From: a virus
Taxonomy: Duplodnaviria; Caudoviricetes
DNA: 50,025 bases
Direction: 5' to 3' (one strand)
IMG/VR virus record: IMGVR_UViG_3300017739_000018
Span: 1-50,025 of that record
Shown here: positions 10,054-37,695 of the stretch, piece by piece
How the letters are laid out: every line of letters begins with the position of its first letter
How positions within the stretch are numbered: position 1 is the first letter of the stretch
Notes under the pieces: generated by a model
Database searches by the model: none
Told to the model about the DNA's origin: nothing
What the model saw: the letters and a program-made list of their open reading frames with translations, nothing else
Position numbers and translations under genes: made by a program

Positions 10054-12177
10054 TTAAGACCTTAAAAACCCAGTTGGATTACTTACTTTGTATTTGTCCG
10101 GGTTCTTTTCTGTATACTTGATGTAAGGGCGTGGAGATATGTCCCTATCATCGTAATTTGAGTATTCTGATTTGTTAAAGTAATCAAACTGTTCTCTAGC
10201 TGATCTATCTGAATTCATTAAAGCGTTTGACATCATTTCGTTATAAAATTCTTTTTCATAGCCTTTGGCAATTCTAGGGGCTATTTCGTTTAAGTACGCT
10301 GAAAATTTAAGAAGAGAGTCCCCAGTAAAAAGGGCGTTTTCTTCGTTAGGATCATCATATATACGGGCACTGTCATCTCTAAACTTTTTGAGAAGGCCGC
10401 CAAACTGCTCAATTTCTCTGTCAGACAGATTGGGGTTAAAGTCTGCATCTTTAGGCGTTTTACCACCTTTAGCCATTTTTCCGCCATCATAAGCTACCAG
10501 CATCCCTTCCGAAGGATTTTGTGGCTGTTCATCGAGTGCTTCAGCTTCGGGGCTTTGGCCGTTCTCTTCGACACGTTCTTCAACTTCCGCTTTGCCGCGA
10601 TTGTTGATCTTATTTAATCTGTCGTAGCCGATGATCTCAGCAAGCAAAGGAGGAATTACAACCTCACCCTCTGAGACTAATAAAGATACAGCATTCTCTC
10701 TGTCTATTTTATTCTCATCTCCAGAAATGTCAACACCTTGGCGTCTTGCTTCATCTATAGCCTGAAGAATCATTTTTTTAATGTCTTCTGATCCGGCGAA
10801 CTCGACTGCGGCCGCGTTAATAATAAACGTACCTTCTTCAACGTCGAGAGGAACGTCATCAGCAACGGTTTTACTCTCTGGTAAATTTTCTGGTTTTTTC
10901 TTGCCCACAAACCCGACAGGGCCGTCACCCGAAGGCTGTCCTTGGGGTTGTCCCACTTGCATACCTTCTTGAACCCGCAGGGGGCGGTCGGCGAGGTCCA
11001 GCACCGCTTGGTTGTAAGCATACATTTCTTGTAGTTCAACAGAAGATCCCGCTTTCATAGGGTTCTTCATAAATGCTTCGGGGTTTTTCTTCACAGCAAC
11101 AGGGTCAAACATAGGACGAGGTTTCGCAGACATCATCTTGTCCATCTGAGAATCGTACGCCGTTCCACCGTTTGCTTTCTTTTTAACTTCACCACCTTCT
11201 TTGAAGAGGGAATCAAATGCGCTGTCAACCATTTCATATGCACTCGGATAAATAGAAGGGCCTACTGCTCGCATAAAGAGAGGACGAAGAGACGACCTGA
11301 AAGGCCGTGTAGCGGCTAATGCAAGAGGATTTGCTCTTGTTACTGCTTGTGCGTACTCGGGGTCGCCGCCTCCTAACTCTCTTCGTGCTTCCATCGCTTC
11401 TCGTGCCGCAATTATTTGAGACTCTCTCGCTTGCGGTGATAACAAAGAAGCACTTTCTCCAAAAGCTGTAGATGCGTAAGCGTAGTCCATTGCCCCTTGT
11501 TCGCGTCCAGTAATATCCGTCGCAAGAGCTCTATCTACTTTTGCTCCTCCGGGAACAGCCATTCCAATGACATTTCCAACAAAATCAGTAAACTCAAAGT
11601 CGTCAAATACTTTTCCGATGTACCCCTCACCTGCCGGCGAAACAATATAGTCTCGAGTTACGCTCGTACCAAAACGGGATGCAACGCCTTCCGCAAGGTT
11701 AGTTCCAAGCTTTTGTAAACTGCCGCTAAGACCTTCTTCATATGATGGAATTTTTGACTGAAGTTCTGATTCGAGCTCGTCAAATCCAATCGCTCCTGCT
11801 AAGAATGCGGCCTCTTCTGCACCGACACGAGAACCTCGAGGATCAAAGTTCATAACTTCCATGTCAGCGTTAAGCACCGTGTAATCTCTTATGGAGTTAG
11901 CCCAGTTACCTCGATTAGCTTTTTCGTAGGCAACGTCTAGACGATCAAACAGGTCAGAGATGCGGTCGAGCTCATCCATTTGCTCATCTTGTCTATCCGC
12001 ACCTTCGCCAACAATTCCCATATTAATGTCAACTTCAGCACCAGAACCCCCACGACCGCCGCCTCCACCGCCATCATTTTGGTCATTACTTCCACCGGAA
12101 TAGCCCATCGCTTCATTGAAAGAATCATCAAAATCTCCTGCGGAACCCCCACCACTACCTGTATTAAAGTTAGCCAT
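10054..12177 (-). CDS. Internal virion protein, 707 aa, with duplicated DDVP..EG.(F/V)(I/V) module
   Basis: ADDVPLDVEEGTFIINAAAV and LLVSEGEVVIPP...RLNKINNRG; low-complexity N-terminus; lies between portal and scaffold. Confidence 0.55.
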   Translation of the reverse strand: MANFNTGSGGGSAGDFDDSFNEAMGYSGGSNDQNDGGGGGGRGGSGAEVDINMGIVGEGADRQDEQMDELDRISDLFDRLDVAYEKANRGNWANSIRDYTVLNADMEVMNFDPRGSRVGAEEAAFLAGAIGFDELESELQSKIPSYEEGLSGSLQKLGTNLAEGVASRFGTSVTRDYIVSPAGEGYIGKVFDDFEFTDFVGNVIGMAVPGGAKVDRALATDITGREQGAMDYAYASTAFGESASLLSPQARESQIIAAREAMEARRELGGGDPEYAQAVTRANPLALAATRPFRSSLRPLFMRAVGPSIYPSAYEMVDSAFDSLFKEGGEVKKKANGGTAYDSQMDKMMSAKPRPMFDPVAVKKNPEAFMKNPMKAGSSVELQEMYAYNQAVLDLADRPLRVQEGMQVGQPQGQPSGDGPVGFVGKKKPENLPESKTVADDVPLDVEEGTFIINAAAVEFAGSEDIKKMILQAIDEARRQGVDISGDENKIDRENAVSLLVSEGEVVIPPLLAEIIGYDRLNKINNRGKAEVEERVEENGQSPEAEALDEQPQNPSEGMLVAYDGGKMAKGGKTPKDADFNPNLSDREIEQFGGLLKKFRDDSARIYDDPNEENALFTGDSLLKFSAYLNEIAPRIAKGYEKEFYNEMMSNALMNSDRSAREQFDYFNKSEYSNYDDRDISPRPYIKYTEKNPDKYKVSNPTGFLRS

Positions 12178-12183
12178 TTGCTA

Positions 12184-12411
12184 TTATTTCTCCGCGTCTA
12201 CCACTGCTTGGTGGTTAGATTTGAGGTTCAGGAGGGTTTCCAGTAAAACCATCTTCCCCTGCAACTGGAACATTTCCCGTTCCGATTGTGCCGTCACCAA
12301 CCCCCGAAGCGTCACTTGGTGGAGGTCCATCAGGTAATTGGTCAGGGCTTCCCATGCCTGCGGGTGGTGCACTAGCGGGCCCACCTTCTGGGCCTGTTCC
12401 TTGTTGAGCAT
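12184..12411 (-). CDS. Small helical protein overlapping the portal 3' end
   Basis: AAGGA RBS then MLNKEQAQKVGPLV...AWEAL...MFQLQGK; typical of post-portal small genes. Confidence 0.65.
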   Translation of the reverse strand: MLNKEQAQKVGPLVHHPQAWEALTNYLMDLHQVTLRGLVTAQSEREMFQLQGKMVLLETLLNLKSNHQAVVDAEK

Positions 12412-14311
12412 TTTGAAGTCCTTGTAGTACTTTTGCGTAGAGTTGTGCTTCATTTACATCATTTACCAGCTCTTCCGGATCAATGTCCTGAGAGATTGCC
12501 AATTCTTTGACAAGATTGGGTAATTTAATAAACGGTGCGAGCATTGGATTCGCAACCGTCTGGAGAAGCGTTGTAAGCCTCTGTGAGCGAACTTCTTTTT
12601 GCATGACGGCCGAGGTACCCCGAGGCTTAATACTTAGATCTCCGACGATATCAGGGGCCTTCTCGTTGTACTGCATATTCCATTGAAAGTATGCTTCACC
12701 AAGCGGTTTAAGAAGATAGTCATCAATGTTTTTGATAACAGTTTTTACGGACATCGTTCCGGCACTCATTAACATAGACAACCCAGAAGACGTTCTACCT
12801 GTACCTGTAACACCCGTTTGTCCGTGCAAAACGCTCGGGATGCCAGTTTCTTCATCTGAAAGCTGACGAGCAATTTGATACATTTGAATGTTTTCAGGTG
12901 CAGTATTAGGAAATTTAAGCCCGTTGATTGCTGTGCCTGTTACCCCCGACTGGCGTCTGAACACTTTACCGGGAAAGATTTCAAAGTTTTGTCCGGGAAC
13001 AAGAGATGCTTCGTCCACATCAAAAACAAGGTTGCCCGCTAATGCTAAGTTGTCAATCGCCATACGAACATGACCGTTCATAAGCATTTGGGCATCTTCC
13101 ATGTTTTCCGCAACGCCAACGCCCCAAATCTGGTAGGGGTTAACTTCATACGGAAAGCAGTGGTATGGAATTCGAGCGGGAGTAAAAGGATTGAGCACAC
13201 AACGTAAAACTTCAGTGCCACAGACCCACGCGTTAATTTGTACTTGATCTAACTCTGAAACAGTCTCAGGTAAATCCATCCCGACTTCACGAGCAAGTTT
13301 AGCATCTAAAACACCCCAATACTCAAACAATTCAAAACGGTTTTCTTGATAGTATGGCTCCGTATCGTCTTCTCTGATCGTATCTTCATAATACTTGTCT
13401 TCGTAGTTGGGTCCTTTTAAAAGTGTGTTTTCTATTGCCGTCGCGTTAAAGAATGGACGATTCATCAAATTACGAATTTGTTGGCGATTCATCCTATGAC
13501 GTTGAATTACATATTCACAATCTTCAAGACTTGTAGCTGAAGGGTCCGGATGGAAGTCCCAAGCTGAAACATGTTCAAGACGAGGAACTAAGTCCTCAGT
13601 AGGGTTGTACACACGTTGTCCGTCTTCGCCACGTTCCCAACTGTGAATGCGCTTGTAATGATTAAACGGTCCTTTTACAATCCCCGTACCGAGAAGGCAC
13701 GACTCAAAGATAGCGTTACGTAATACATTGACCGCGTTTGTGTCCAAAAGCTGGTCGTGAATATGCTTTTCTAACGCACGTGCCGCCTCAGCCGCTGGAG
13801 AAAACTGGGGCTCTCCTACTAGCGACGGGCCTGCTGAGAGCTGATCCGCCATTTTTTGGTACTTGCCGAAATTAACCTCAGTAGCACCGGGTTCTAAATC
13901 TAGCCCATCACCAGCAAAACCAAAAGGACTTTGTAATTCATCCGCAGGTGTTTTAAGGTGTGCAAACTCCACGATACCGTCAGGCACAGGAGTGTGTTCA
14001 ACTACGATTGGAAACTTTTTGTTCACAAACAAAATGTCTACAATTTGACCGTATGCCGCTAAAACTTTAGTCTTCGTGATTTTAATAAAGACTTTAGATC
14101 TTTCAGAGTCACGATACTGTGTAGACGAGTCGTAGATTCCACGGAAGTTTTTGTACGCTTGAAGCCACCGCTGTTCAAATGTACGACGTCCATTTTCCGA
14201 ATCTTGAAAACGATTATGGATATAGCCTGCTAGCCCCGGCATTTGTTCGTCAACATCGAGAACCTCGACCTGACCGTCATCCGGAGCTTGAAGGAAGCCC
14301 TCTTCAGCCAT
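12215..14311 (-). CDS. Portal protein
   Basis: RSKVFIKITKTKVLAAYGQI, GTGIVKGPF, WGVGVAENMEDAQ; downstream of terL. Confidence 0.9.
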   Translation of the reverse strand: MAEEGFLQAPDDGQVEVLDVDEQMPGLAGYIHNRFQDSENGRRTFEQRWLQAYKNFRGIYDSSTQYRDSERSKVFIKITKTKVLAAYGQIVDILFVNKKFPIVVEHTPVPDGIVEFAHLKTPADELQSPFGFAGDGLDLEPGATEVNFGKYQKMADQLSAGPSLVGEPQFSPAAEAARALEKHIHDQLLDTNAVNVLRNAIFESCLLGTGIVKGPFNHYKRIHSWERGEDGQRVYNPTEDLVPRLEHVSAWDFHPDPSATSLEDCEYVIQRHRMNRQQIRNLMNRPFFNATAIENTLLKGPNYEDKYYEDTIREDDTEPYYQENRFELFEYWGVLDAKLAREVGMDLPETVSELDQVQINAWVCGTEVLRCVLNPFTPARIPYHCFPYEVNPYQIWGVGVAENMEDAQMLMNGHVRMAIDNLALAGNLVFDVDEASLVPGQNFEIFPGKVFRRQSGVTGTAINGLKFPNTAPENIQMYQIARQLSDEETGIPSVLHGQTGVTGTGRTSSGLSMLMSAGTMSVKTVIKNIDDYLLKPLGEAYFQWNMQYNEKAPDIVGDLSIKPRGTSAVMQKEVRSQRLTTLLQTVANPMLAPFIKLPNLVKELAISQDIDPEELVNDVNEAQLYAKVLQGLQNAQQGTGPEGGPASAPPAGMGSPDQLPDGPPPSDASGVGDGTIGTGNVPVAGEDGFTGNPPEPQI

Positions 14312-14325
14312 AGTAATCTACCTTG

Positions 14326-14523
14326 TTAGCCGTATAAGGAAGTATCGTCTGCCATTGTGAACAGAGAAGCATCTACCGTTGTTTTAGTTTGAACTTTAGG
14401 TGCGTCTTCTGTTAGAACGTCAGTTTTTGCTTGCGTATCAAACTCCAGACCTTCACGATAGAGATTAGTTTCTCCAACATTAGTATCTACAGTTTGTTTA
14501 TCTGAGTTCATAATATCTTTCAT
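14326..14523 (-). CDS. Small acidic protein, 65 aa
   Basis: GAGGAG RBS before MKDIMNSDKQ; the longer track start overlaps the upstream gene. Confidence 0.6.
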   Translation of the reverse strand: MKDIMNSDKQTVDTNVGETNLYREGLEFDTQAKTDVLTEDAPKVQTKTTVDASLFTMADDTSLYG

Positions 14524-14533
14524 TTTATTCTCC

Positions 14534-16270
14534 TCATTGGATTCCAAACATTCGGGACATCTGTCCCTCAATGTCGTCACGTAAGCCAGCTTCTTCGGCT
14601 TGTTCTTCAATTTCTTTTGCCACAGGTTCTAGCGCGGCTCCCATTACTTCTTTACCGACTTCGACACCTGCTTGCATTATTCCGACAGGACTTTCTTCGA
14701 GTATAAATTGTCCGGCCTGTTCTAATACAGAAGGTACGACGGGTTTTCCTTCTTCAATGTTTTTTTGAGCTTCAGCGACACGGGGCATAAGTGAAGCACC
14801 TATCAACGCAGTGCCTCCAACTGTAAGAGCTCCTTGAGCCATCTTGCCGCCATCAATATTGCGGAAGAAGTCCATGAGTGAACTCATGCCTTTTTTCATG
14901 TCGTCGTCTACGGTGACTTGTTTAGGAGCAGGAGCGGTTTCCGCTTGGATGCGAGCGCGTTCTTCTTTTTCAAACTGTTTGAGTTCTAATTCACGCGTGA
15001 TTTGCTGTCGATCAATGGCATCCTGCCCTTCAAGAAACTTTTGACCCTCTTCACTCTGTAAAAACTCAATTCGCTCTTTTTGCTTTTTAAGAGCATCACT
15101 TAAATAGTTTTCAGTTTTATTCTTAGCTTCTGCAACCTGTGCTTTTGCTAACTCTCTGCGCTCTTCTTCCGTAAGAGTCGAAGTAAAGTTTGAAGCGTCC
15201 TCTCCAAAACCCGCGAACTTATCACGGACACCGATTAAAAGGCTATCGGCAATCTTGCCCAGTCCTTCGACAGGCTTGAGTCCTGCGTAGTTTCTTGAAA
15301 GAATGGAAGAGTCGGTGTGACCCATCATTGCTTCGGTAACGTCCGTCGGATAACCGAGCTCGTCTCGAACGATTACTGACATAAACGAACGAGTAGCACT
15401 TGGGCTTGTTATAACGCCTTTAGAAGGGTCTTTTGCGTCAAACAGCGGTAAAAAATCTTCAAACCCTGCCAATAACCGTGGAGAAATAGTTGCACGGTAC
15501 GCTTTATCGTACGTACTTTGAGTCACGTCAAATAGCTTGTCACTAACGGAAGACTCATAGTTACGGATTACTAAATCCGCCATTGGTGATCCAATGGGAT
15601 ACTTTACTGCGGGGCGAGTTTTTTTACCTTTAGTTACGCTTTTAACAGTGACAAAATCGTCTGTGATAGTGACGTCGGACTTTTTAATTGCGCTGTTACC
15701 AATTAATTGTTCGGGGCGTTGAAAAGTCGCTTTGTGGTACAGAGCTAAATCTGCAACTGCGTCTCCATATTGAGCCCGTATTTCAGGGACAGCTTCCGAA
15801 TATATCTTTTCAATATCGTCGTGCGGGATAGGCTTTTGCATGGGGCGTTCGCCCGCCAGATCAGTGCGCTGTGTACCTCCTGATAGACTTCCCGACCCTT
15901 TACCCCCTGTAATGAGAGGATAAACCCTAATTTCACCTACTCCACCGGGACCGGGCACTGTTAGATTAAGTAAACCGGATTCCTCAAGAATTGGTCGAAT
16001 GTTTGTTTCTAAAGCTTGGAAATTACTGTACTTGTTGGCGGTTTTGTTTACATCCTTACCTAAACGAGACCAATTGTCTTGCTTCCGCATCTCAGCGAGC
16101 GTAATATCCGCAGGTAAACCTGTTTTGTCCCACGTATTACGGAGTGCACGTAGCTGTTTAAAGTGGTTTTCAGTCGTAGTAGGCTTTGCCATCGCGTAGT
16201 CGATAGCTTCACGGACTGTAAGCGTTTGGTCTGCGGCCTTTTCTACAAATTCTTCGTACGATAGTGGCAT
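14534..16270 (-). CDS. Tyrosine recombinase-fold protein with C-terminal coiled-coil and hydrophobic extension
   Basis: Ordered motifs ATFQRPEQL (R), TKGKKTR (K), SPSATRSF (R; His of HxxR replaced), MMGHTD (H), SRNYAG (Y). Confidence 0.72.
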   Translation of the reverse strand: MPLSYEEFVEKAADQTLTVREAIDYAMAKPTTTENHFKQLRALRNTWDKTGLPADITLAEMRKQDNWSRLGKDVNKTANKYSNFQALETNIRPILEESGLLNLTVPGPGGVGEIRVYPLITGGKGSGSLSGGTQRTDLAGERPMQKPIPHDDIEKIYSEAVPEIRAQYGDAVADLALYHKATFQRPEQLIGNSAIKKSDVTITDDFVTVKSVTKGKKTRPAVKYPIGSPMADLVIRNYESSVSDKLFDVTQSTYDKAYRATISPRLLAGFEDFLPLFDAKDPSKGVITSPSATRSFMSVIVRDELGYPTDVTEAMMGHTDSSILSRNYAGLKPVEGLGKIADSLLIGVRDKFAGFGEDASNFTSTLTEEERRELAKAQVAEAKNKTENYLSDALKKQKERIEFLQSEEGQKFLEGQDAIDRQQITRELELKQFEKEERARIQAETAPAPKQVTVDDDMKKGMSSLMDFFRNIDGGKMAQGALTVGGTALIGASLMPRVAEAQKNIEEGKPVVPSVLEQAGQFILEESPVGIMQAGVEVGKEVMGAALEPVAKEIEEQAEEAGLRDDIEGQMSRMFGIQ

Positions 16271-17974
16271 TTAGTATCCGAATGTTGAATCTTGGGGTTT
16301 AAATGTGCTATTCTTAATGTCGTTAAGTGTTTTGTGGATAGAGACGTACCCAGATGTACGGGTCATTAACATGTAGCGGAGCGCGTCGTACGCATGGTCT
16401 TCCGCTTTTGTGTCGACGTCTTCAGAATTTGTTTTTGACAGGGGGATACCCGCTAACTGTTTTATTATGTTTGTGCACGTGTTAAAAAATTTAACTGTAG
16501 GCTCTCCGGTAAATTCATTGTCACCTAATCTACGGTGTATTTCCATTTTACCGGATATTCTGTTACTATCAGATGGAGTCCAACGGCAACCGCCACGGAT
16601 CATTGTCTCTGCAATAGACGGGCCGTATCCTGTACGATTCCAACAGGATTTATCGAGCACAACGTAATGAGGATTAGGGTCCCACTCCTCTAATTCTATT
16701 ATTTTAGCGGCTAGTTGCTCTGCTGTAAAGTGTTTTACGTAAAGTTCTCGATAGACCCATATGTTGTTGTCCCAATCGATTGCACCCCAGAGTACGCACG
16801 AAGGGCTTGCATAACCGTAGTCAGCGGCACGGATTCTTGGCCAGTTGGTTGGTAGTTCGAAAGGATCAACGCAGTGCTTAATCTTGTTAAACTCTGGGAA
16901 AGCACAACCTTCTGCAACATCCCAGTCTCCGTCGAGTAGACGCTTTCGCTCCACTTCTGGTAAGGAGAGGAGCATTGCTTCGTATTGGCCGTCCCGCATA
17001 AGGTACGGGTTGTCTGTAAGTCTGGCTGGGACGAATTTTCTCCAGTACAGCGGCTGGCCTGCCTTCTCATGTCCCTCAGGGTATACATATGGCTTTCCTG
17101 ACTCGATATCGGCGGGAACGAATGGCTTACCGGGGTTTCCTTGGTCGATGTACATCTTTTTGACCCACCAGCCTCCGACACCGCCGGGGTTGGCTGTACA
17201 CCGCATTGAGAGATTTTTCGAGAGCTCTGAGTCGGTTGAACGGAGACGTGACCGTAGGTAGTCCCATACGTAGGAGGTGGGATACTGGGTAATTTCATCG
17301 ATTGCTATCCAATTGAAGGCTTGTCCCTGATATCGGGTAACGTCTTTGTCTTTGTCAAGATAACTAAACCAGATAGTGGCCCCCGACGGGAAATGCCATG
17401 TGGATTTAGACTCTCTAAAGGAGGCACCGGGAAACGCCTTGGGATAAAGTTGTTTAGATTTGGAGATGAGTTCAGTCAATTCATCCAGAGTGCGACGGAG
17501 TAATAAACCACGATGACTAGGATTATGGCAATAACGGAGAGGATCTGCCAAGAGAGCGAAACTTTTTCCTCCACCAGCCGCACCGCCGTATAATACATCT
17601 TGTTCAGGTGCTGACAGAAAGTCTTCTTGTGGTCCATCATTCGGTTTGAATACAACTTCAGATTCTCCCACAAGCTTTTTAACTGCGTCTGGTAAGGCAT
17701 TTAAGTCTCCTACATCAATTACTCGTGAATTTTTACCTTGTAGTGCCGTTTCTACTTTTGATGCGGCTTTTTCTCGCACGGATGCACGATATGCTTGTTT
17801 CTTAGCCGCTTCTCTTTTCTTTTCAGCTTCTTTTTTTGATCTTCTTATCGAAGCTTGTGTCGCTCTACGCGCTTTTTCCGCAGTAGAGAGGTGATAACGG
17901 GCTTTGGGCGCGTTCGGGTCTTTTTTTGGACGACCACGGGCACGTTTTGGAGCTTCTGCGACCTCATCCGTCAT
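16271..17974 (-). CDS. terL: Terminase large subunit
   Basis: Walker A YGGAAGGGKS, Walker B IAIDE, TANPGG, nuclease motifs DYG and EDHAYDALRY. Confidence 0.95.
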   Translation of the reverse strand: MTDEVAEAPKRARGRPKKDPNAPKARYHLSTAEKARRATQASIRRSKKEAEKKREAAKKQAYRASVREKAASKVETALQGKNSRVIDVGDLNALPDAVKKLVGESEVVFKPNDGPQEDFLSAPEQDVLYGGAAGGGKSFALLADPLRYCHNPSHRGLLLRRTLDELTELISKSKQLYPKAFPGASFRESKSTWHFPSGATIWFSYLDKDKDVTRYQGQAFNWIAIDEITQYPTSYVWDYLRSRLRSTDSELSKNLSMRCTANPGGVGGWWVKKMYIDQGNPGKPFVPADIESGKPYVYPEGHEKAGQPLYWRKFVPARLTDNPYLMRDGQYEAMLLSLPEVERKRLLDGDWDVAEGCAFPEFNKIKHCVDPFELPTNWPRIRAADYGYASPSCVLWGAIDWDNNIWVYRELYVKHFTAEQLAAKIIELEEWDPNPHYVVLDKSCWNRTGYGPSIAETMIRGGCRWTPSDSNRISGKMEIHRRLGDNEFTGEPTVKFFNTCTNIIKQLAGIPLSKTNSEDVDTKAEDHAYDALRYMLMTRTSGYVSIHKTLNDIKNSTFKPQDSTFGY

Positions 17975-18371
17975 GCTCTACAACCATTTCTTTTTTCGGG
18001 GGGAGTAATACCACCCCATGTATAGCTTGGATGTTGACATTGTGAGTCTCTTGTTTCCCCAAGCCGACTCTATTGAGCAAACTCTCGGCCGCTTGGAGAC
18101 GTATGTTATCTCCACGCTCGATTTCTGGTGCATCAATGGTCTGGACAAGCTTATTAGCGGCTTTGAGAGCACCACCTGCAAGAATATTCCGTGCTCCTTC
18201 GATAATTTCGTCGGCAAGAGACTCTTTAAGGTGTCCGATGGAACCCTGCGAGTAACCTGACACTTCACAGGCACGTGAGAAGTTACCTCCGTTCTCGAAG
18301 AGTGCGGTAAGAAAAGCTTGTTGTTTGTCGGATAACTCACGTTTTTTCCGTTGTTGAGGAAGGAGATTCAT
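17964..18371 (-). CDS. terS: Terminase small subunit
   Basis: LSDKQQAFL..L...GGN...ACEVSGYS HTH and C-terminal VVLLPPK; directly upstream of terL. Confidence 0.75.
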   Translation of the reverse strand: MNLLPQQRKKRELSDKQQAFLTALFENGGNFSRACEVSGYSQGSIGHLKESLADEIIEGARNILAGGALKAANKLVQTIDAPEIERGDNIRLQAAESLLNRVGLGKQETHNVNIQAIHGVVLLPPKKEMVVEHDG

Positions 18372-18487
18372 GAAAATCACATATATATGTTAAAAAAAGC
18401 GTACGAAGGGGCTTGTGGTCGCGGAACTTTGTTCACATGGACTATAAAAGTTGATTTCCCTTGCCATTTTGGCCCCGGTACAGAGTT

Positions 18488-18517
18488 ATTATGGGCAACA
18501 ACCGTTTAATTTGTCAA
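18488..18517 (-). promoter_or_regulatory. sigma70 promoter for the terminase/structural arm
   Basis: TTGACA-18 bp-CATAAT on the minus strand, divergent from the promoter at 18542. Confidence 0.6.
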
Positions 18518-18541
18518 CAAAAAAAATATTTTATGTAGCTA

Positions 18542-18600
18542 TTGACGAAATGAAATCTGAACAGTACAATGGGATTGTAAGCCCGCCGGGGTAAACCCAT
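18542..18600 (+). promoter_or_regulatory. sigma70 promoter plus conserved downstream element (copy A)
   Basis: TTGACG-17 bp-TACAAT, then CCCGCCGGGGTAAACCCAT at 18582-18600. Confidence 0.78.
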
Positions 18601-18660
18601 ACAATACCCGCAGGTCAACCCCAGAACCCTGACAGTACCCTCTGCTGTCGGGGTTTTTTT
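18577..18660 (+). ncRNA. Candidate ~85-nt small RNA
   Basis: Bounded by a near-consensus promoter and an intrinsic terminator; contains no ATG-started ORF. Confidence 0.55.
18625..18660 (+). terminator. Intrinsic terminator
   Basis: AACCCTGACAG / CTGTCGGGGTT stem followed by a T run. Confidence 0.8.
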
Positions 18661-19054
18661 GTATCCAGTTTGCTCATCCATTGGATTACCAACGGTAAGC
18701 CGTCGTGTGAAACACTCCGTGAAACATAATACCCAAAACTACAAAAAATATGGGGAGATTGCTAGCAATAGTGCCACCACCCCCCGTGTCCCTTGCCCTG
18801 CCACCATTGGGGTCCTTTTATTTTAACATCACTGATCTTTCGGTTTTACCCTTGGGTCGTTCCTTCGGTCTCCCGTTGGGTAACCCCCAAAGGTTTTAAT
18901 GGCTCAACGCGTAGAAATTTCGGTAAAGGCGTTGACCCTTTTCAAATCGGTTTTCAAAATGGCCCCCGTCGATGGGCGGTTATATAGCCCCAGTGGACAC
19001 CTTAAAAAACCTTTAGATGTACTGGCGGTAAGTACTTAGGTATTTTTCTGGGAC

Positions 19055-19080
19055 AAAAAAAGGCCCCCGTAGTGGGGGCC
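19055..19080 (-). terminator. Intrinsic terminator of the early minus-strand cluster
   Basis: GGCCCCC-ACTAC-GGGGGCC then TTTTTTT on the minus strand. Confidence 0.85.
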
Positions 19081-19135
19081 AAAAAGCCGGCGGGATAATC
19101 TGAGAATGGAAACTCAGCACCGGCTCGAGGGAATA

Positions 19136-19348
19136 TTATAGACTCACGTCAGACGTACCGACTAGCGCGAGTGTTTCCAGCTTATTGAGGACGTTGGCAA
19201 GATTGCGAGCAAAAAGGATGCGCTCGTCAGACACATACGTGCTGATCTTGTTGTCGTCACCGCGAGTCGCCCAACCCACTTGATCAATCAAACGCTTTAG
19301 TTCGGCAAGTTGAGCAGGCGTAAAGTTCAAAGTTGTTTCGGTTTTCAT
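19136..19348 (-). CDS. Hypothetical early protein, 70 aa
   Basis: AAGGGG RBS and ATGA overlap with the upstream gene. Confidence 0.6.
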   Translation of the reverse strand: MKTETTLNFTPAQLAELKRLIDQVGWATRGDDNKISTYVSDERILFARNLANVLNKLETLALVGTSDVSL

Positions 19349-19764
19349 AGTGTTCCCCTTAAGGTTTTGAAGTCGTTATTTTCCCTGACCCCTTCGGCCA
19401 GTGAGAACAATGTAATACGTCCCTTTCGAGATTGCAAATTTGCGAGCCCATGATGTTTCACAATGTGGGTGTACTGTGCGATTGTTTCCGGCTTAACTCC
19501 CAAGATCCCAGCAATGTGCTGGCGGTGCATCGTGCCGTAATGCGAGAGTAGTGCAAGCATACGGTAATGTGTCGAACGTATTTTTCGATCATCGGCGGTA
19601 CGCTTCTGGTCGGCCTCAAGCAACTCATCGGCCGATATCACCTCGCCGTCCATCTCATTTTTGAGATCGTCCAGTTGAGACGAGAGAGTCTCAATCTGGC
19701 TAGCGAGGGTTGAAAGTGCTTCGCGATGGTTCGCAAGTTCAGTGCTGAATGTTTTTGTGTTCAT
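19345..19764 (-). CDS. Coiled-coil plus C-terminal HTH DNA-binding protein
   Basis: Likely start MNTKTF; MHRQHIAGILGVKPETIAQY is HTH-like. Confidence 0.6.
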   Translation of the reverse strand: MNTKTFSTELANHREALSTLASQIETLSSQLDDLKNEMDGEVISADELLEADQKRTADDRKIRSTHYRMLALLSHYGTMHRQHIAGILGVKPETIAQYTHIVKHHGLANLQSRKGRITLFSLAEGVRENNDFKTLRGTL

Positions 19765-19846: not shown

Positions 19847-20851
19847 TCATGCGGCCAACTCCAGTGATTGCCATTGTGGCGACTCGAGAACGGTGCGAAC
19901 TTTTGCTTCCCGTTGAAGTCGTACTCGGTGAGGATTCGACGAACCACGACTGGTCGATAGTTCGGTGATTGTGCCGTCATCGTTCTCGCGCTCCCATGTT
20001 TCATCGACGTGAGTCGCCCAATGTGTAAGGGCATTGTAAGCACCCCACAATGTCGGGCCCAACTCCCGCTGTTCCTCTTGGAATCGATGGTTGAGATAAT
20101 CGAGCAAACGGCCGTTAACTCGTGTGTTTTTGTCGGTCGAAAGTTGCGAGGCCTCGCCTCCTTTCTTGCACACTGTATTTTCGAGAACCTCAACCCACTG
20201 GGACCGATCTAATTCGATGGTTCTCCACTTCTGCATCTGGTCGCGGTGAGCATGAAACATACCAAGGCCTAGCGTAGATTTAGCAATCATCGCAGAGACC
20301 GACAGATTAGAGGTGTGTTTTCGTTTCTGGTGGTAAGCCTTCTGACCCCCAAACACCATCGTATTACGGCAGTAATCGCGGTAAGCACCGGAGAACACCT
20401 GAAACGCCCACGACATGTCGACGCTGTTAATAATGTCGGCGCGGGCCGTGATTCCTTCCCCCCTGCCGTCAATGTCGAAAGTGAGATCGTTGAAATAAAC
20501 TGCTCGAGTGGCGCGGCGGCCTTCGTCGAAAATCCGGTCGACTACGGTGAAATTATCGTGGGGTAACGATGGGTTCTCGAGTATCGATTTCGCTTGCTCG
20601 AGGAACGCCAGTGAATGATCCACAAGCTTATAGGATTTAGAGACCGGCGGTGACGCCAGTAGCTTTTGCGTGTTGCTGTTTCGGAGTGCGTAGTATCCCT
20701 CGACAAGATTCCGGTCGCGGTCGTAAATCGCCTCCTTTTGGACAGATCCAAGTTCACTAAAAAAGTCGACGTCAAGCGGGTTGCTGTGCGTGAACTCCAA
20801 ACCGTCTTGGATACGCTGAGCGGTGCGCTCTGGGTTAACTGCAATATTCAT
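19847..20851 (-). CDS. DUF932-like phage/plasmid protein
   Basis: AAGGAGG RBS before MNIAVNPER; INSVDMSWAFQVFSGAYRDYCRNTM...KRKHT matches the family pattern. Confidence 0.7.
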   Translation of the reverse strand: MNIAVNPERTAQRIQDGLEFTHSNPLDVDFFSELGSVQKEAIYDRDRNLVEGYYALRNSNTQKLLASPPVSKSYKLVDHSLAFLEQAKSILENPSLPHDNFTVVDRIFDEGRRATRAVYFNDLTFDIDGRGEGITARADIINSVDMSWAFQVFSGAYRDYCRNTMVFGGQKAYHQKRKHTSNLSVSAMIAKSTLGLGMFHAHRDQMQKWRTIELDRSQWVEVLENTVCKKGGEASQLSTDKNTRVNGRLLDYLNHRFQEEQRELGPTLWGAYNALTHWATHVDETWERENDDGTITELSTSRGSSNPHRVRLQREAKVRTVLESPQWQSLELAA

Positions 20852-20873
20852 GGCTAAAAGCCTCCTTAGTAAT

Positions 20874-20947
20874 TGGACACAGCGAGGGGAATCGAACCCC
20901 TGTAAACAGATTTGCAGTCTGTCGCCTAACCAGTCGGCCACGCTGTG
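20874..20947 (-). tRNA. tRNA-Cys (GCA), 74 nt, CCA encoded
   Basis: Acceptor CACAGCG/CGCTGTG, D arm GCCG..AGGC, anticodon arm ACAGA-CTGCAAA-TCTGT, T arm AGGGG-TTCGATT-CCCCT, U73 then CCA. Confidence 0.93.
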
Positions 20948-20983
20948 TCGGTATCCGGTCGGCCAATCCGATCCGGTAAAGTC

Positions 20984-20992
20984 ATTATAGCA
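20984..20992 (-). promoter_or_regulatory. Extended -10 promoter upstream of the tRNA
   Basis: TGcTATAAT on the minus strand about 37 nt before the tRNA 5' end. Confidence 0.6.
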
Positions 20993-21227
20993 CGGAACAA
21001 AAGAACCATAACAAGAAACCAAGCAAAAAAGTTTCTGTCAAAGAAGTGAATCCAACGACGCGATCAAATCGCGGGCGAGGGACCTCGTCGGGCTTTAAAG
21101 AGAATTTAGAAACGGCACAATATTTCCCATAACCTACGCGCCCAAAATGAGGAGTTGACCTTTTTTGTTGCTGATTTCGATTCGCATCCATGCCCAAAAT
21201 GATGCGGTGACCTTTTTTGGTCTGCAT
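20985..21227 (-). CDS. Hypothetical basic protein
   Basis: GGGAG RBS before MQTKKGH; fills the gap after the Gp88-like gene. Confidence 0.45.
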   Translation of the reverse strand: MQTKKGHRIILGMDANRNQQQKRSTPHFGRVGYGKYCAVSKFSLKPDEVPRPRFDRVVGFTSLTETFLLGFLLWFFCSVL

Positions 21228-21242
21228 TTGAATTCACTCCCG

Positions 21243-23283: not shown

Positions 23284-23342
23284 GTGGGCGTACCCCCGGC
23301 AGGGGTTGATCGGACTGTATCATGAATTTTATTGGCCATCAA
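23284..23342 (-). promoter_or_regulatory. sigma70-like promoter plus conserved downstream element (copy C)
   Basis: TTGATG-17 bp-TACAGT, then CCTGCCGGGGGTACGCCCAC. Confidence 0.65.
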
Positions 23343-23343
23343 C

Positions 23344-23399
23344 AAAAAGGAGGTTGACCTTTTTCTTTGCTGTTTTGAAAAAAGGAGGTTGACCTTTTT
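23344..23399. repeat. Perfect 21-bp direct repeat, 35-bp period
   Basis: AAAAAGGAGGTTGACCTTTTT at 23344-23364 and 23379-23399. Confidence 0.9.
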
Positions 23400-29611: not shown

Positions 29612-30427
29612 ATGGGCGAAGTGAGCGTTATAGGCATGTCTCTTTCTGAGGCAATTAAAACTGGAGATCAGGAGCTTATCCTAAAAGCATCTGGACAAAC
29701 TGAGGCGGATCAGCCAAAGGCTGGTTTGGCACGTCTTAACATTAATTATGATACGGACACGGACGACGGTCATACATTAAAGAAGGGCACATGGAAAGTG
29801 TACTACGATGGCGAATTTGTATACGCGGATAGTGTACATTTTCATCCTTACCTTCGTACTTACGAGTGGTCTGTGTGGGATAACGACGAGAGTAAATTCT
29901 CAAGTCGGTCAGTTCAAGCTGAATCGCTTGATTATCAATTCCCCGACACCACAGGAGGAAACAAGTGTGGCCGCTTAACTAAGTCGGACGAAGAGGCGTT
30001 GGGTGAGGATCATCCGAAAACACTGGCATCGCGTTTAGCGACATGCAATCAGGTTTTCTATGGCATGATCAGCATGAAAGGTAAGAATGCTGGAGGAAAA
30101 ACTATCGAAGTCAAAGACTTCCCAGTCGTTTCTTACTTCAAGCGTTCTGGCTTCCGTCCCGCACGTGAGGCAGTTCAGAAGTTGGGCAAGACACCACTAC
30201 ACACGGTGACTTTTAATTTGACGACTCAGCGTCAAAAGATGGGTAGTGTTGTGTACTTTACTCCTGTGTTTACGCAAGATAAAAGTGCGAATGTTGACAT
30301 TGATACCCTTGTAATGTTTGAGGATACAGTCAAAGCATCTAACACAATGATTATGGAACAGCATAAGGAGGCTTTTAAAGCCAAAGCTAGTGAACAAGAA
30401 GTTGACTTAGCGGCGGACTTTGCCTAA
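29612..30427 (+). CDS. Putative single-stranded DNA-binding protein
   Basis: AAGGAG RBS before MGEVSV; follows pol; acidic/aromatic C-terminus (DLAADFA). Confidence 0.5.
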   Translation: MGEVSVIGMSLSEAIKTGDQELILKASGQTEADQPKAGLARLNINYDTDTDDGHTLKKGTWKVYYDGEFVYADSVHFHPYLRTYEWSVWDNDESKFSSRSVQAESLDYQFPDTTGGNKCGRLTKSDEEALGEDHPKTLASRLATCNQVFYGMISMKGKNAGGKTIEVKDFPVVSYFKRSGFRPAREAVQKLGKTPLHTVTFNLTTQRQKMGSVVYFTPVFTQDKSANVDIDTLVMFEDTVKASNTMIMEQHKEAFKAKASEQEVDLAADFA

Positions 30428-31311
30428 TGATTGCTGAAGTTCTAGTTAAGGACTTCTTGCATAAAGCAGTAAGGGGGGAGGTAACACTTCCCCCTTCTGT
30501 CATGGAAGAGTTTGCAAAGGATTGCCGCGAGGCACTTGAAAAACAATTTAACCGCAATTCTGAGTGGCGATTACGTATGTCAGGATTGGGACGACCCATG
30601 TGTCAGCAGATACACGGGCGCGACGGTAAAGATGAGGAGATGGAATACAACTCAATACTGCGGTTTTTAATTGGAGATCTCGTAGAATGTGCCGTGATGG
30701 CGATACTCAAAGGAGCGGGTATCAAAATCATCGAAACACAAGGTAAGTGTGAACTAGAAATCGGTGGAGAAAGTGTGCAGGGCACACTCGATTTAATTAT
30801 GGATGATCCCGTCGATGGGGAGAAAGTGTGGGATGTTAAGTCTGCGTCTCCTTACTCCTTTGCACAGAAGTTTTCAAAAGGATACGACAACATCAAGCAG
30901 GATGATCCGTTTGGTTACGTGATGCAGGGTCATCTATACGCCGAATCAAGGGATCTTAACTTCGGTGGGTGGATTGTAGTGGACAAATCATCAGGAGAGA
31001 TACAGTTTGTGTCTGCCCCGGATGATCAGGCGGACGACAGAGCGGTGTACCTTGAAGAAGCCGCACGTACTGTTGAAGCTCTTATGTCTAATTATTCATA
31101 CAAGAAGCCGCCCATTCCCCCAGAAGATGAATGCTACACCCTAAAGGGTGAGAAGATTTATACCGGAAACAAGATACTCAATAAATCGTGTACTTTCTGT
31201 GGCTACCGTAAGCACTGCTGGCCGAAGGCAGTACAACACCCGAAGGTTACATCTCGAGCTCGGAACAAGCCGCTTGCTTGGTATCACACACTGAAGGTGA
31301 AAGAACTATGA
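30427..31311 (+). CDS. PD-(D/E)XK exonuclease, Cas4/RecB-like
   Basis: RMSGLGRPMC, GTLD...WDVKS, Q..LY and terminal CTFC.....HC. Confidence 0.82.
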   Translation: MIAEVLVKDFLHKAVRGEVTLPPSVMEEFAKDCREALEKQFNRNSEWRLRMSGLGRPMCQQIHGRDGKDEEMEYNSILRFLIGDLVECAVMAILKGAGIKIIETQGKCELEIGGESVQGTLDLIMDDPVDGEKVWDVKSASPYSFAQKFSKGYDNIKQDDPFGYVMQGHLYAESRDLNFGGWIVVDKSSGEIQFVSAPDDQADDRAVYLEEAARTVEALMSNYSYKKPPIPPEDECYTLKGEKIYTGNKILNKSCTFCGYRKHCWPKAVQHPKVTSRARNKPLAWYHTLKVKEL

Positions 31312-36860: not shown

Positions 36861-37024
36861 ATCGTGATGGAAACATTGAATTTAATTTGGACTGCGTTGA
36901 TACAGTGGGAATGGAGCGCATTTTACGCAAGCTTGGCGATCCCGTTTATCCTCATAAGATTGGTAACATTGTGAGGCATTATTTTCGTGTCCTTCAAGAA
37001 AAACTTAAAGAGGAAAGGTCGTAA
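36815..37024 (+). CDS. Hypothetical protein
   Basis: GAGG RBS; TAATG coupling to the next gene. Confidence 0.55.
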   Translation: MADSKAQLLNFTIELNRDGNIEFNLDCVDTVGMERILRKLGDPVYPHKIGNIVRHYFRVLQEKLKEERS

Positions 37025-37695
37025 TGGCGTACCTGCTTTCTAATATTCCTTATTTTAAATGCTGGGTACGCAAAGAATTTACCGCGAATCATCAAGATTA
37101 CCACGGTGAATATCTTCATGCACTTGCAATCGCTGTAAATACTATAACTGATAGGTCACTTACTTTTCAGGTTGTGTTTACGGGTTGTGAGATTGATCTT
37201 GAAGAGGGTCTTGAAAATGTACACGGAGGTGCAATGTGGGCAAGGATGCCCATTCAAGCTCTGGTTTTTGACATGGAACTGGAGGAGTGGCCCGAAAGAA
37301 TGGAGGATCACTTAGCACAACCTTGGGATTGCGAGTCGCGTAACCATGAAGTTATCGTGATGGACCGAGTTAGTTCAAGTCCTTGGATAGCAAAAATAGA
37401 TGGTGAGTTTTATGAAGCAAGGTATTTGTTTACTGTAGATTACACAGAGAACGATATTGCAGATTCACCAGATCAACACAAACAATCTCATGTCCTGTAC
37501 CTCACAGAAGGGCAGTGGGAAGGAAATGTAGTTGCCTTGCCAAACAACCGGGTTAGAGCTACAAGTCCAGCCTTGTGGAGAACAGGAGAAGGTGCTCCTG
37601 ACTTTGCTCCTAGCCAATATGTTCATTCTGCGGAGGGGGATAGCACGTACACTGATCCCAGCATCACGTTCAATAACCTGTACGCAGAGGAATAA
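37024..37695 (+). CDS. Conserved marine phage hypothetical protein
   Basis: MAYL.SNIPYFKCWVR, NVHGGAMWARMPI, AQPWDC, ALPNNRVR. Confidence 0.7.
   Translation: MAYLLSNIPYFKCWVRKEFTANHQDYHGEYLHALAIAVNTITDRSLTFQVVFTGCEIDLEEGLENVHGGAMWARMPIQALVFDMELEEWPERMEDHLAQPWDCESRNHEVIVMDRVSSSPWIAKIDGEFYEARYLFTVDYTENDIADSPDQHKQSHVLYLTEGQWEGNVVALPNNRVRATSPALWRTGEGAPDFAPSQYVHSAEGDSTYTDPSITFNNLYAEE

Follow-up and report, generated by a model that had tools for sequence, protein, structure and literature searches.

Why would a tailed phage keep a gene with the marks of a site-specific recombinase among the genes that package its own genome? The question is raised by IMG/VR record IMGVR_UViG_3300017739_000018 (Duplodnaviria; Caudoviricetes), whose complete sequence of 50,025 bases, with a G+C content of 44.8% and a CheckV completeness of 94%, is the stretch of DNA analysed here and is called the window below. 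The gene in question is an open reading frame (ORF) of 578 amino acids (aa) on the minus strand, next to the gene for the terminase large subunit (TerL); on the plus strand, the reading frame of the same interval is full of stops. A first-pass annotation, made from the letters and a list of ORFs, had described its product as a tyrosine recombinase fused to a virion-like tail, made late and possibly packaged and ejected so as to act on incoming DNA, an overall interpretation that our results support in part. We found that every sampled member of the clade carries such a recombinase, with an intact predicted active site, inside the packaging operon. The most striking feature is that the gene is universal and yet its enzyme part is swapped wholesale between near-identical phages. 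The gene and the two domains of its enzyme part are as follows.

14534..16270, minus strand: recombinase ORF P0001, 578 aa from ATG to stop, with a tyrosine-recombinase fold and a C-terminal extension of about 230 aa
15851..16270, minus strand: N-terminal helical domain, residues 1-140, matching the tyrosine-recombinase core-binding domain (predicted local distance difference test, pLDDT, 82-94 over residues 1-120)
15221..15850, minus strand: catalytic domain, residues 141-350, with Arg185, Lys217, (Ser291)xxArg294, His318 and Tyr328

Predicted fold and active site

In an AlphaFold2 model built from a 32-sequence alignment (mean pLDDT 69.8, with blocks of residues 1-310 mostly at 72-94), residues 1-350 take the two-domain fold of tyrosine recombinases, a core-binding domain followed by a catalytic domain. 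Foldseek against the PDB matched eight entries at E <= 0.001, every one of them a tyrosine recombinase (lambda Int, Tn1549 Int), with lambda Int 1z1b_B at the top (1.3e-4). VIA-align placed the model closest to archaeal XerA (4a8e, Z 12.0, 240 residues aligned over model residues 15-348) and a Staphylococcus aureus integrase (3nkh_A, Z 12.0, 144 aligned, root-mean-square deviation 2.6), followed by XerH (5jk0_B, Z 11.3, 257 aligned, model 6-322), lambda Int (Z 10.9-11.2, 244-247 aligned) and its catalytic core (1ae9_B, Z 11.2, 150 aligned, root-mean-square deviation 3.4); Tn1549 Int aligned over 257 residues, with both domains covered. Helical proteins can give unspecific VIA-align matches when Z is under about 13, and this comparison therefore draws its weight from the coverage of both domains and from the fact that all 50 of the 50 matches listed were recombinases, integrases, type IB topoisomerases or protelomerases. 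Among the 50 BFVD matches listed, those with a name were nearly all integrases or recombinase-domain proteins, and the query-normalised TM-score never exceeded 0.34, which leaves the tail uncovered. The three comparisons agree on the fold for which the first-pass annotation had suggested a structural check. The two-domain alignments begin at model residues 6-17, which pair with lambda Int from residues 67-74 and with XerH from residue 1. Residues of lambda Int before about 67, its arm-binding domain, have no counterpart in the model, and the protein has no arm-binding domain.

Sequence searches describe a family that appears small and set apart. A search with phmmer over 1.84 billion representative proteins recovered 62 relatives at E <= 0.001 and a word-indexed search 42; the full-length phmmer relatives have 530-778 aa, while shorter rows match part of the query only. 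The only PHROGs match of the window protein was phrog_1, 'integrase' (8.6e-4). The recombinase family PF00589, with a gathering cut-off of 27.1 bits, was found below that cut-off in 4 of 32 aligned relatives (21-25 bits) and reached it in two clade members, the homologue in record G001 (27.5 bits, with neighbours) and L058 (35.1 bits). Searching the PDB with phmmer returned nothing at E <= 10, and with the family profile only low-complexity coiled-coil matches at E >= 0.16. With tblastn the protein matched nothing in 50,697 phage records, and NCBIfam gave no significant match.

All the motifs quoted in the first-pass annotation were located in the protein, and in the canonical order: QRPEQL at 184 (Arg185), TKGKK at 213 (Lys217), SATRSF at 291 (Ser291 and Arg294), MMGH at 315 (His318) and SRNYAG, which supplies Tyr328 (codon 15287-15289); an earlier RNY at 236 is irrelevant. 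By the hhalign register, Arg185, Arg294 and His318 pair with R212, R311 and H333 of lambda Int. Conservation was counted over 88 relatives of at least 250 aa, using at each column the ungapped rows only. Arg185 was kept in 85 of 85, Lys217 in 83 of 84, Arg219 in 82 of 84, Arg294 in 82 of 85, His318 in 79 of 85 (Gln in four) and Tyr328 in 85 of 86, so that the R, K, R, H and Y looked for in orthologues at this locus are retained. On this evidence the catalytic motifs are more than a chance resemblance.

The position of the HxxR histidine behaves differently, as had been anticipated. It is Ser291 in the window protein, and among the 88 relatives the residue was S (58), G (10), T (5), K (5), A (3), M (2) or E (1), and His in none of 84. 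This residue also varies among accepted members of the superfamily, being Lys in type IB topoisomerases (TopIB) and Tyr in ResT. In a second sample, assembled through TerL (see below), 74 ORFs were long enough to align with L-INS-i, an alignment that is uncertain chiefly at the Lys column. There the first arginine was kept in 74 of 74, the second in 74 of 74 and the tyrosine in 73 of 74, with Lys in 56 of 74 at its uncertain column and the second His position divided between H (47) and R (27). The first His position held S in 25, Y in 19, K in 9, T in 8, R in 5, A in 3, Q in 3 and G in 2, and never His. Loss of the HxxR His from all members, together with a window protein that scores below the Pfam cut-off, is what one might see in a structural or scaffolding descendant of a recombinase that has lost catalysis. 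We consider such a descendant highly improbable, as arginines and a tyrosine that stay near-invariant across barely alignable proteins would be difficult to account for if catalysis had been lost.

Fixed position in the packaging operon

The recombinase gene lies in a run of minus-strand genes in the order TerS, TerL, recombinase, 65-aa ORF, portal, 707-aa protein, scaffold-like protein and major capsid protein. The features around it are these.

16271..17974, minus strand: TerL (phrog_979 1.3e-59, Terminase_6N 5.4e-07)
17964..18380, minus strand: putative TerS, the first gene of the operon (weak phrog_51 match, 0.0041; aligns with the annotated putative TerS of HTVC115P)
18517..18488, minus strand: sigma-70-type promoter-like site upstream of TerS (TTGACA, 18 nucleotides (nt), CATAAT; 11 of 12 positions; called by consensus match alone)
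14326..14523, minus strand: small acidic ORF of 65 aa (D+E 13, K+R 6) in the gap between recombinase and portal, conserved
12215..14311, minus strand: portal (SU10_portal 6.3e-24)
19080..19062, minus strand: terminator-like hairpin ending the preceding minus-strand genes

The ATG of the recombinase directly follows the TAA of TerL, just as the first-pass annotation had described, and the arrangement of TerS, TerL, this gene and portal behind a near-consensus sigma-70-type promoter-like site bears out its expectation of co-expression with the packaging genes. Its placement of the gene between TerL and portal needs one amendment: both flanks are confirmed, but the conserved 65-aa ORF separates the gene from the portal. 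Contigs from independent seawater sequencing runs (X4, X5) overlap parts of the gene with zero differences, and for that reason we do not regard it as an assembly artefact.

TerL of the window is closest to those of HMO-2011-type marine podophages (CRP-207, 57.5% identity; HMO-2011, 54.4%; HTVC115P, 48.9%), and the window also has ribonucleotide reductase genes and encodes a family A DNA polymerase in which a DnaJ-type zinc finger is weakly matched. Judged from its genes, the source is an uncultured HMO-2011-type marine podophage. The available part of PMC9038755 counts phages of this type among the dominant viral groups of the sea.

We collected related loci in two ways. In IMG/VR loci found by protein alignment with the recombinase, TerL ended a few bases before the gene in 34 of 36, the other two contigs starting inside the gene, and the portal lay downstream in 31 of 36, the other five contigs stopping earlier; the small acidic ORF was present in 34 of 38, and the remaining four contigs stop before that point. 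Because such a sample is circular, having been found through the gene itself, loci were also seeded through TerL only, using the best 80 of 583 IMG/VR relatives (TerL 73-93% identical to that of the window). Three of the 80 end too soon to be informative, and in all 77 with enough downstream DNA a large ORF starts at the TerL stop. Where the ORF in this slot is complete (n=64), it has 559-759 aa. Of the 60 TerL-seeded loci extending as far as the start of the portal gene, 59 contain the 65-aa ORF, with identities of 44-100%, far above the conservation of the recombinase.

The profile from our first alignment recognised 34 of the 77 slot ORFs. For 10 representatives of those it failed to recognise, PF00589 was listed for five, in one case above the cut-off. 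The unrecognised ORFs encode proteins of the same kind, with a single superfamily occupying the slot. The gene is absent from the cultured relatives examined, HMO-2011, CRP-207 and HTVC115P, and in the first two the portal follows directly after TerL. Compared across HMO-2011-type phages, the TerL-portal junction is a variable slot, filled in the clade of the window by the recombinase and the small ORF.

The same junction holds three small ORFs in HTVC115P and a 219-aa ORF in the uncultured ctYwJ313. The 65-aa ORF itself has no Pfam, PHROG or NCBIfam match, and tblastn gave none for it at the loci of HTVC115P and HMO-2011.

Exchange of the enzyme part

At 50% identity the 77 slot proteins fall into 41 clusters. 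To compare this with the divergence of the flanking gene, we scored pairs by effective identity, that is, identity times coverage: among 44 pairs of loci with TerL at least 97% identical, the slot proteins were below 30% effective identity in 22 and at or above 80% in 21, and in one pair with 100% identical TerL the slot proteins share merely a 4% stretch. Compared as DNA, the window and its relatives lose homology within the first 35 nt of the gene (16236-16265) and regain it at the stop of the gene (14534) or within the tail (14800). Breaks of this kind mark replacement of the cassette by recombination, as opposed to gradual drift.

This turnover bears on two further explanations. It may be an Xer- or Cre-like resolvase of multimers or of branched replicating DNA, tethered by its tail to terminase, portal or membrane, that clears DNA for packaging and is not carried over to the next infection. 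Tight packing and co-transcription with TerS, TerL and portal would suit such an enzyme, as would the architecture of a simple recombinase, and in the available part of PMC3556154 phiCbK gp143, a tyrosine recombinase of a virulent phage, is proposed to act likewise. One would, however, expect a housekeeping resolvase to evolve slowly, in step with a site that stays the same, which is hard to square with 41 clusters among 77 genes whose TerL neighbours are 73-93% identical, and HMO-2011, CRP-207 and HTVC115P package their DNA without such a gene; we judge this explanation unlikely. The other explanation takes the turnover as the signature of conflict, with the protein as an effector that cuts, nicks or traps the DNA of the host or of competitor phages, or as a target of host defences, under diversifying, frequency-dependent selection. 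It would account for extreme turnover at constant flanks with the catalytic residues kept, and for a TerL-portal junction that is a variable slot across HMO-2011-type phages. Presence in 77 of 77 loci with a constant architecture nonetheless resembles a core function more than an accessory weapon, and we know of no tyrosine recombinase with a role in conflict, which makes this rather improbable in our view. A homing-endonuclease-like selfish element was also considered and set aside as a principal explanation, given that all 77 loci carry the gene in a constant architecture.

The C-terminal extension

Beyond the catalytic tyrosine the slot proteins carry an extension whose median, taken over 74 ORFs of which contig ends truncate some, is 275 aa. 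The charged stretch, a putative coiled coil, and the Gly/Ala-rich one noted in the first-pass annotation were both found in that of the window protein, which contains the following.

14936..15169, minus strand: two long charged helices, a putative coiled coil, residues 368-405 and 407-445 (pLDDT about 54-78)
14789..14830, minus strand: Gly/Ala-rich uncharged segment ALTVGGTALIGASL, residues 481-494
14537..14863, minus strand: acidic end module, residues 470-578, ending FGIQ (D+E 18, K+R 9), conserved

From residue 445 to the C-terminus the AlphaFold2 model has low-confidence helices. Uncharged runs of at least 14 residues occur in the extensions of 49 of 74 relatives, and are only moderately hydrophobic: the 19-residue Kyte-Doolittle maximum was 1.26 in the window protein (below 1.6), and among the relatives its median was 1.22, with 1.6 reached in 1 of 69. 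We therefore did not call this stretch a transmembrane helix.

Searching databases with the tail only returned nine proteins, all of the recombinase family, and there is accordingly no sign in that search of a non-recombinase cargo on the same tail. Nor is it repeated in any other frame of the window, which argues against a targeting peptide common to several phage proteins. Enzyme and tail can, however, part company. Two relatives (P0008, P0009) have enzyme domains 79-86% identical to that of the window but unrelated tails, whereas others (L041, P0036, P0057, P0064, P0069, P0095 and P0096) have tails 59-75% identical but enzyme domains that are at most 34% identical or undetected. Judging from these alignments, the enzyme part and the tail reassort independently.

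Recombination sites and lysogeny

If the protein recombines DNA, a site might be sought nearby. The first-pass annotation had proposed the 18.66-19.05 kb region and a tRNA-Cys locus as substrates, and no recombination site was found in either: the former contains promoter-like and terminator-like sites, and the tRNA call at the latter overlaps a conserved DUF932 ORF. A scan of the window for lox-like sites (11-nt inverted arms, 5-9 nt spacer) gave one, inside a terminator-like hairpin, against 0-5 in shuffled sequences. There is likewise no sign of an invertible segment, the long inverted repeats of the window all being imperfect (70-90% complementary) and taken as chance.

The tRNA-Cys was called by ARAGORN at 20874-20947 (minus strand), where it overlaps the 5' part of a 391-aa frame (19847-21022, minus). 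This frame carries a DUF932 domain (3.1e-16), and an ORF of the related G001 contig matches it with 41% identity over 375 aa. Its true start may be downstream of the tRNA; otherwise the tRNA call is open to doubt.

The leading alternative is that the gene is simply the lysogeny integrase of the clade at an unusual place, its product made in the cell but not packaged, in which case the cassette swaps would be switches of attachment-site specificity. Wholesale exchange between near-identical phages is typical of integrase modules, and the two-domain fold is nearest to those of Xer, lambda Int and Tn1549 Int. The gene is also the sole PF00589-like gene of the contig (94% complete by CheckV), in which a six-frame search gave no other PF00589 match; among five larger related records, only G001 has a match, located inside the homologous gene, and the other four have none. 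One relative (P0034) is named 'integrase' by one source, and some HMO-2011-type subgroups are temperate according to the available part of PMC9038755.

That same source, as far as its available part goes, places the canonical integrase of HMO-2011-type subgroups I and III upstream of the replication module and not in the packaging operon, reports no lysogeny genes for subgroups IV-X, and describes most subgroups as having no identifiable lysogeny genes. The protein itself fits an integrase poorly in several respects: all 64 complete genes encode 559-759 aa, with a median extension of 275 aa that the matching PDB and BFVD integrases leave uncovered, the arm-binding domain is missing, and there is no adjacent non-coding DNA that could serve as attP. 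No tRNA-like fragment was found in the gene with Rfam at permissive thresholds, either in the window (14200-19400) or at 14 other loci, and the early ORFs tested included no recognisable repressor or excisionase. The contig of G001 consists of syntenic phage DNA throughout, with no bacterial flank seen. In one genome from each of 185,579 species, pattern scans gave 172 hits for recombinase relatives and 398 for TerL relatives, none of which was confirmed, although in viral contigs these TerL patterns had recovered 583 relatives; these scans rely on exact peptide patterns, and binned (marine) genomes may lose prophages. Together the prophage, att and tRNA results weigh against an ordinary integrase, which we hold to be possible but doubtful.

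Proposed role

The reading that we tentatively favour, as plausible though short of probable, is that the gene product is a 'simple' tyrosine site-specific recombinase, very divergent yet catalytically competent, that is made late with the packaging proteins, stays with the packaged DNA and acts at the next infection, by cyclisation or integration. Tyr328 would attack DNA at a specific sequence to form a 3'-phosphotyrosyl intermediate, and each cassette may have a DNA specificity of its own. The enzyme would be loaded with, or kept at, the packaged DNA, a step suggested by its synthesis alongside the packaging proteins and by a separately exchangeable tail of docking type. At the start of the next infection it could then join the ends of the incoming genome, in a Cre/lox-like cyclisation, or insert the genome into a host site. 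A fuller version of this scheme, which we regard as somewhat unlikely, has a ready-made recombinase loaded through an exchangeable C-terminal docking module and injected with the DNA, so that the genome is circularised or integrated before gene expression, while specificity cassettes are traded between otherwise identical phages.

Several observations count against a delivered, active recombinase. The HxxR His is missing from all relatives, and the activity of the enzyme may for that reason be altered. The segment that carries the tyrosine (323-330) is poorly modelled, with pLDDT below 50, and Tyr328 was consequently assigned through its motif and conservation instead of the model. Family evidence at the sequence level is thin for the window protein, which has no Pfam match at E <= 0.1 and reaches 10 bits for PF00589 in a six-frame search; the hhalign profile comparison with lambda Int was non-significant (E 0.13, probability 0.44) and served for the motif register only. 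No candidate recombination site was found, and since the swapped cassette contains no non-coding DNA, a co-swapped site would have to be inside the ORF. The promoter of the operon resembles a host sigma-70 promoter, and the 'late' timing comes from operon position only. We found no virion evidence for the protein, and the virion-like character ascribed to its tail in the first-pass annotation was not borne out: the tail matches no internal-virion or ejection family (PHROGs, tail-only search), a protein atlas search with residues 360-578 gave no usable match, the tail folded alone gives no confident structure (mean pLDDT 48.4), and its hydrophobic stretch stays below the transmembrane threshold.

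Comparison with known systems

For an enzyme acting on incoming phage DNA, a close parallel is Cre of phage P1, together with the Cre-like enzymes of phage-plasmids. When P1 DNA enters a cell, Cre links its terminally redundant ends; the cre gene is close to where packaging begins, and the specificities of Cre-like enzymes in related elements have diverged. Like the window protein it is a simple two-domain recombinase with no arm-binding domain, and Cre chains align with the model over residues of about 1-325 at Z 8.1-9.3. The differences are considerable: Cre has 343 aa and no C-terminal extension, its HxxR His (His289) is present and its second His position is Trp, cre adjoins the non-coding loxP and is not in a terminase-portal operon, and in PDB searches sequence similarity between the two proteins was undetectable.

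By structure, the best matches that cover both domains are lambda Int, XerA, XerH and Tn1549 Int (Z 10.3-12.0), which have Arg-I, Lys, Arg-II, His-II and Tyr in the same order as the window protein. Relative to this group, the window protein has Ser in place of the first His, no arm-binding domain, an extra tail of about 230 aa and a location in the packaging operon. Type IB topoisomerases, poxvirus and bacterial, match in the catalytic domain, the variola enzyme (3igc_A) at Z 10.2 with 150 residues aligned over model residues 141-322. Poxvirus TopIB, which is packaged into virions, has Lys at the first His position, as do 9 of 74 clade members, whereas the window protein has Ser. TopIB chains align with model residues 141-352 only (Z 7.5-10.2), while residues 1-140 match the core-binding domains of recombinases. 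Telomere resolvases (TelA, TelK, ResT) have the catalytic fold in common and extra C-terminal domains of their own, and the Tyr found at the first His position in 19 of 74 clade members is also that of ResT. Their structural match is weaker (TelA Z 6.3-6.5, against 10-12 for integrases) and no hairpin-type palindromic target was seen in the window. On the strength of that low TelA score, a protelomerase was ranked low among the candidates.

A working model for an enzyme delivered at DNA ends comes from proteins of a different kind. SPP1 gp7 is encoded by a head-operon gene adjoining the portal gene, and the protein travels with the DNA. Its counterpart in 80alpha, gp44, likewise portal-adjacent in the head operon and travelling with the DNA, binds and protects genome ends, according to the available part of PMC7290940. 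These proteins are not recombinases and show no sequence or family match to the window protein.

A literature search found no paper that describes a tyrosine recombinase either at the terminase-portal junction or in the virions of a tailed phage. The gene is not mentioned in the available parts of PMC9038755 and bioRxiv 10.1101/2019.12.14.876532, whose supplementary orthogroup tables may list it, and the recombinases treated in the available parts of PMC5648845 and PMC3556154 are other ones, located elsewhere in their genomes. The enzyme family is known; supplements aside, what we did not find in the literature is the architecture with its modular tail (about 230 aa), the absence of the first His from every member, the constant site between terminase and portal and the exchange of cassettes across the clade. 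The rate at which cassettes are exchanged is like that of receptor-binding, immunity or integrase modules. An integrase would mean that the life style of this clade has been misread. Delivery with the DNA, or action at packaging, would be a new use of the tyrosine-recombinase family, and a tyrosine recombinase delivered in the virion of a tailed phage would, to our knowledge, be the first. In either case the at least 41 divergent cassettes amount to a natural library of site-specific recombinases, presumably with different targets.

Other features of the window

The window sequence is present in sequencing runs of ten studies, one of which is possibly its source, and the runs listed with it include no RNA run. 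Contigs from these runs have no joint that skips the recombinase gene and no pile-up of ends, though contigs cannot show ends; the record itself has no direct terminal repeat.

Downstream of the portal, the 707-aa protein (10054-12177, minus) has no family match and looks mosaic: in relatives whose portals are 87-90% identical, its best match is confined to residues of about 423-565 (83-84%). It could be a second variable neighbour of the portal gene.

Upstream of the operon, a promoter-like site (TTGACG, 17 nt, TACAAT; plus strand, within 18542-18657) points away from the TerS promoter and is followed by a strong terminator-like hairpin at 18623-18657, a pair that could yield a short non-coding transcript. 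The region 18542-18657 has no Rfam family above threshold, and in contigs of three runs an additional T follows 18653. Beside the early genes, a motif of 21-44 nt that contains GGAGGTTGACCTTTTT is present in two or three copies at each of 21140-21235 and 23339-23399, and the GGAGGTTGACCTTTTT repeats resemble repeated promoter or operator sites. On the plus strand, the window further encodes a Cas4-domain exonuclease in the replication module (30427-31311; phrog_1990, 1.6e-27) and a ferredoxin-like auxiliary gene (37024-37695; phrog_3704, 1.8e-29).

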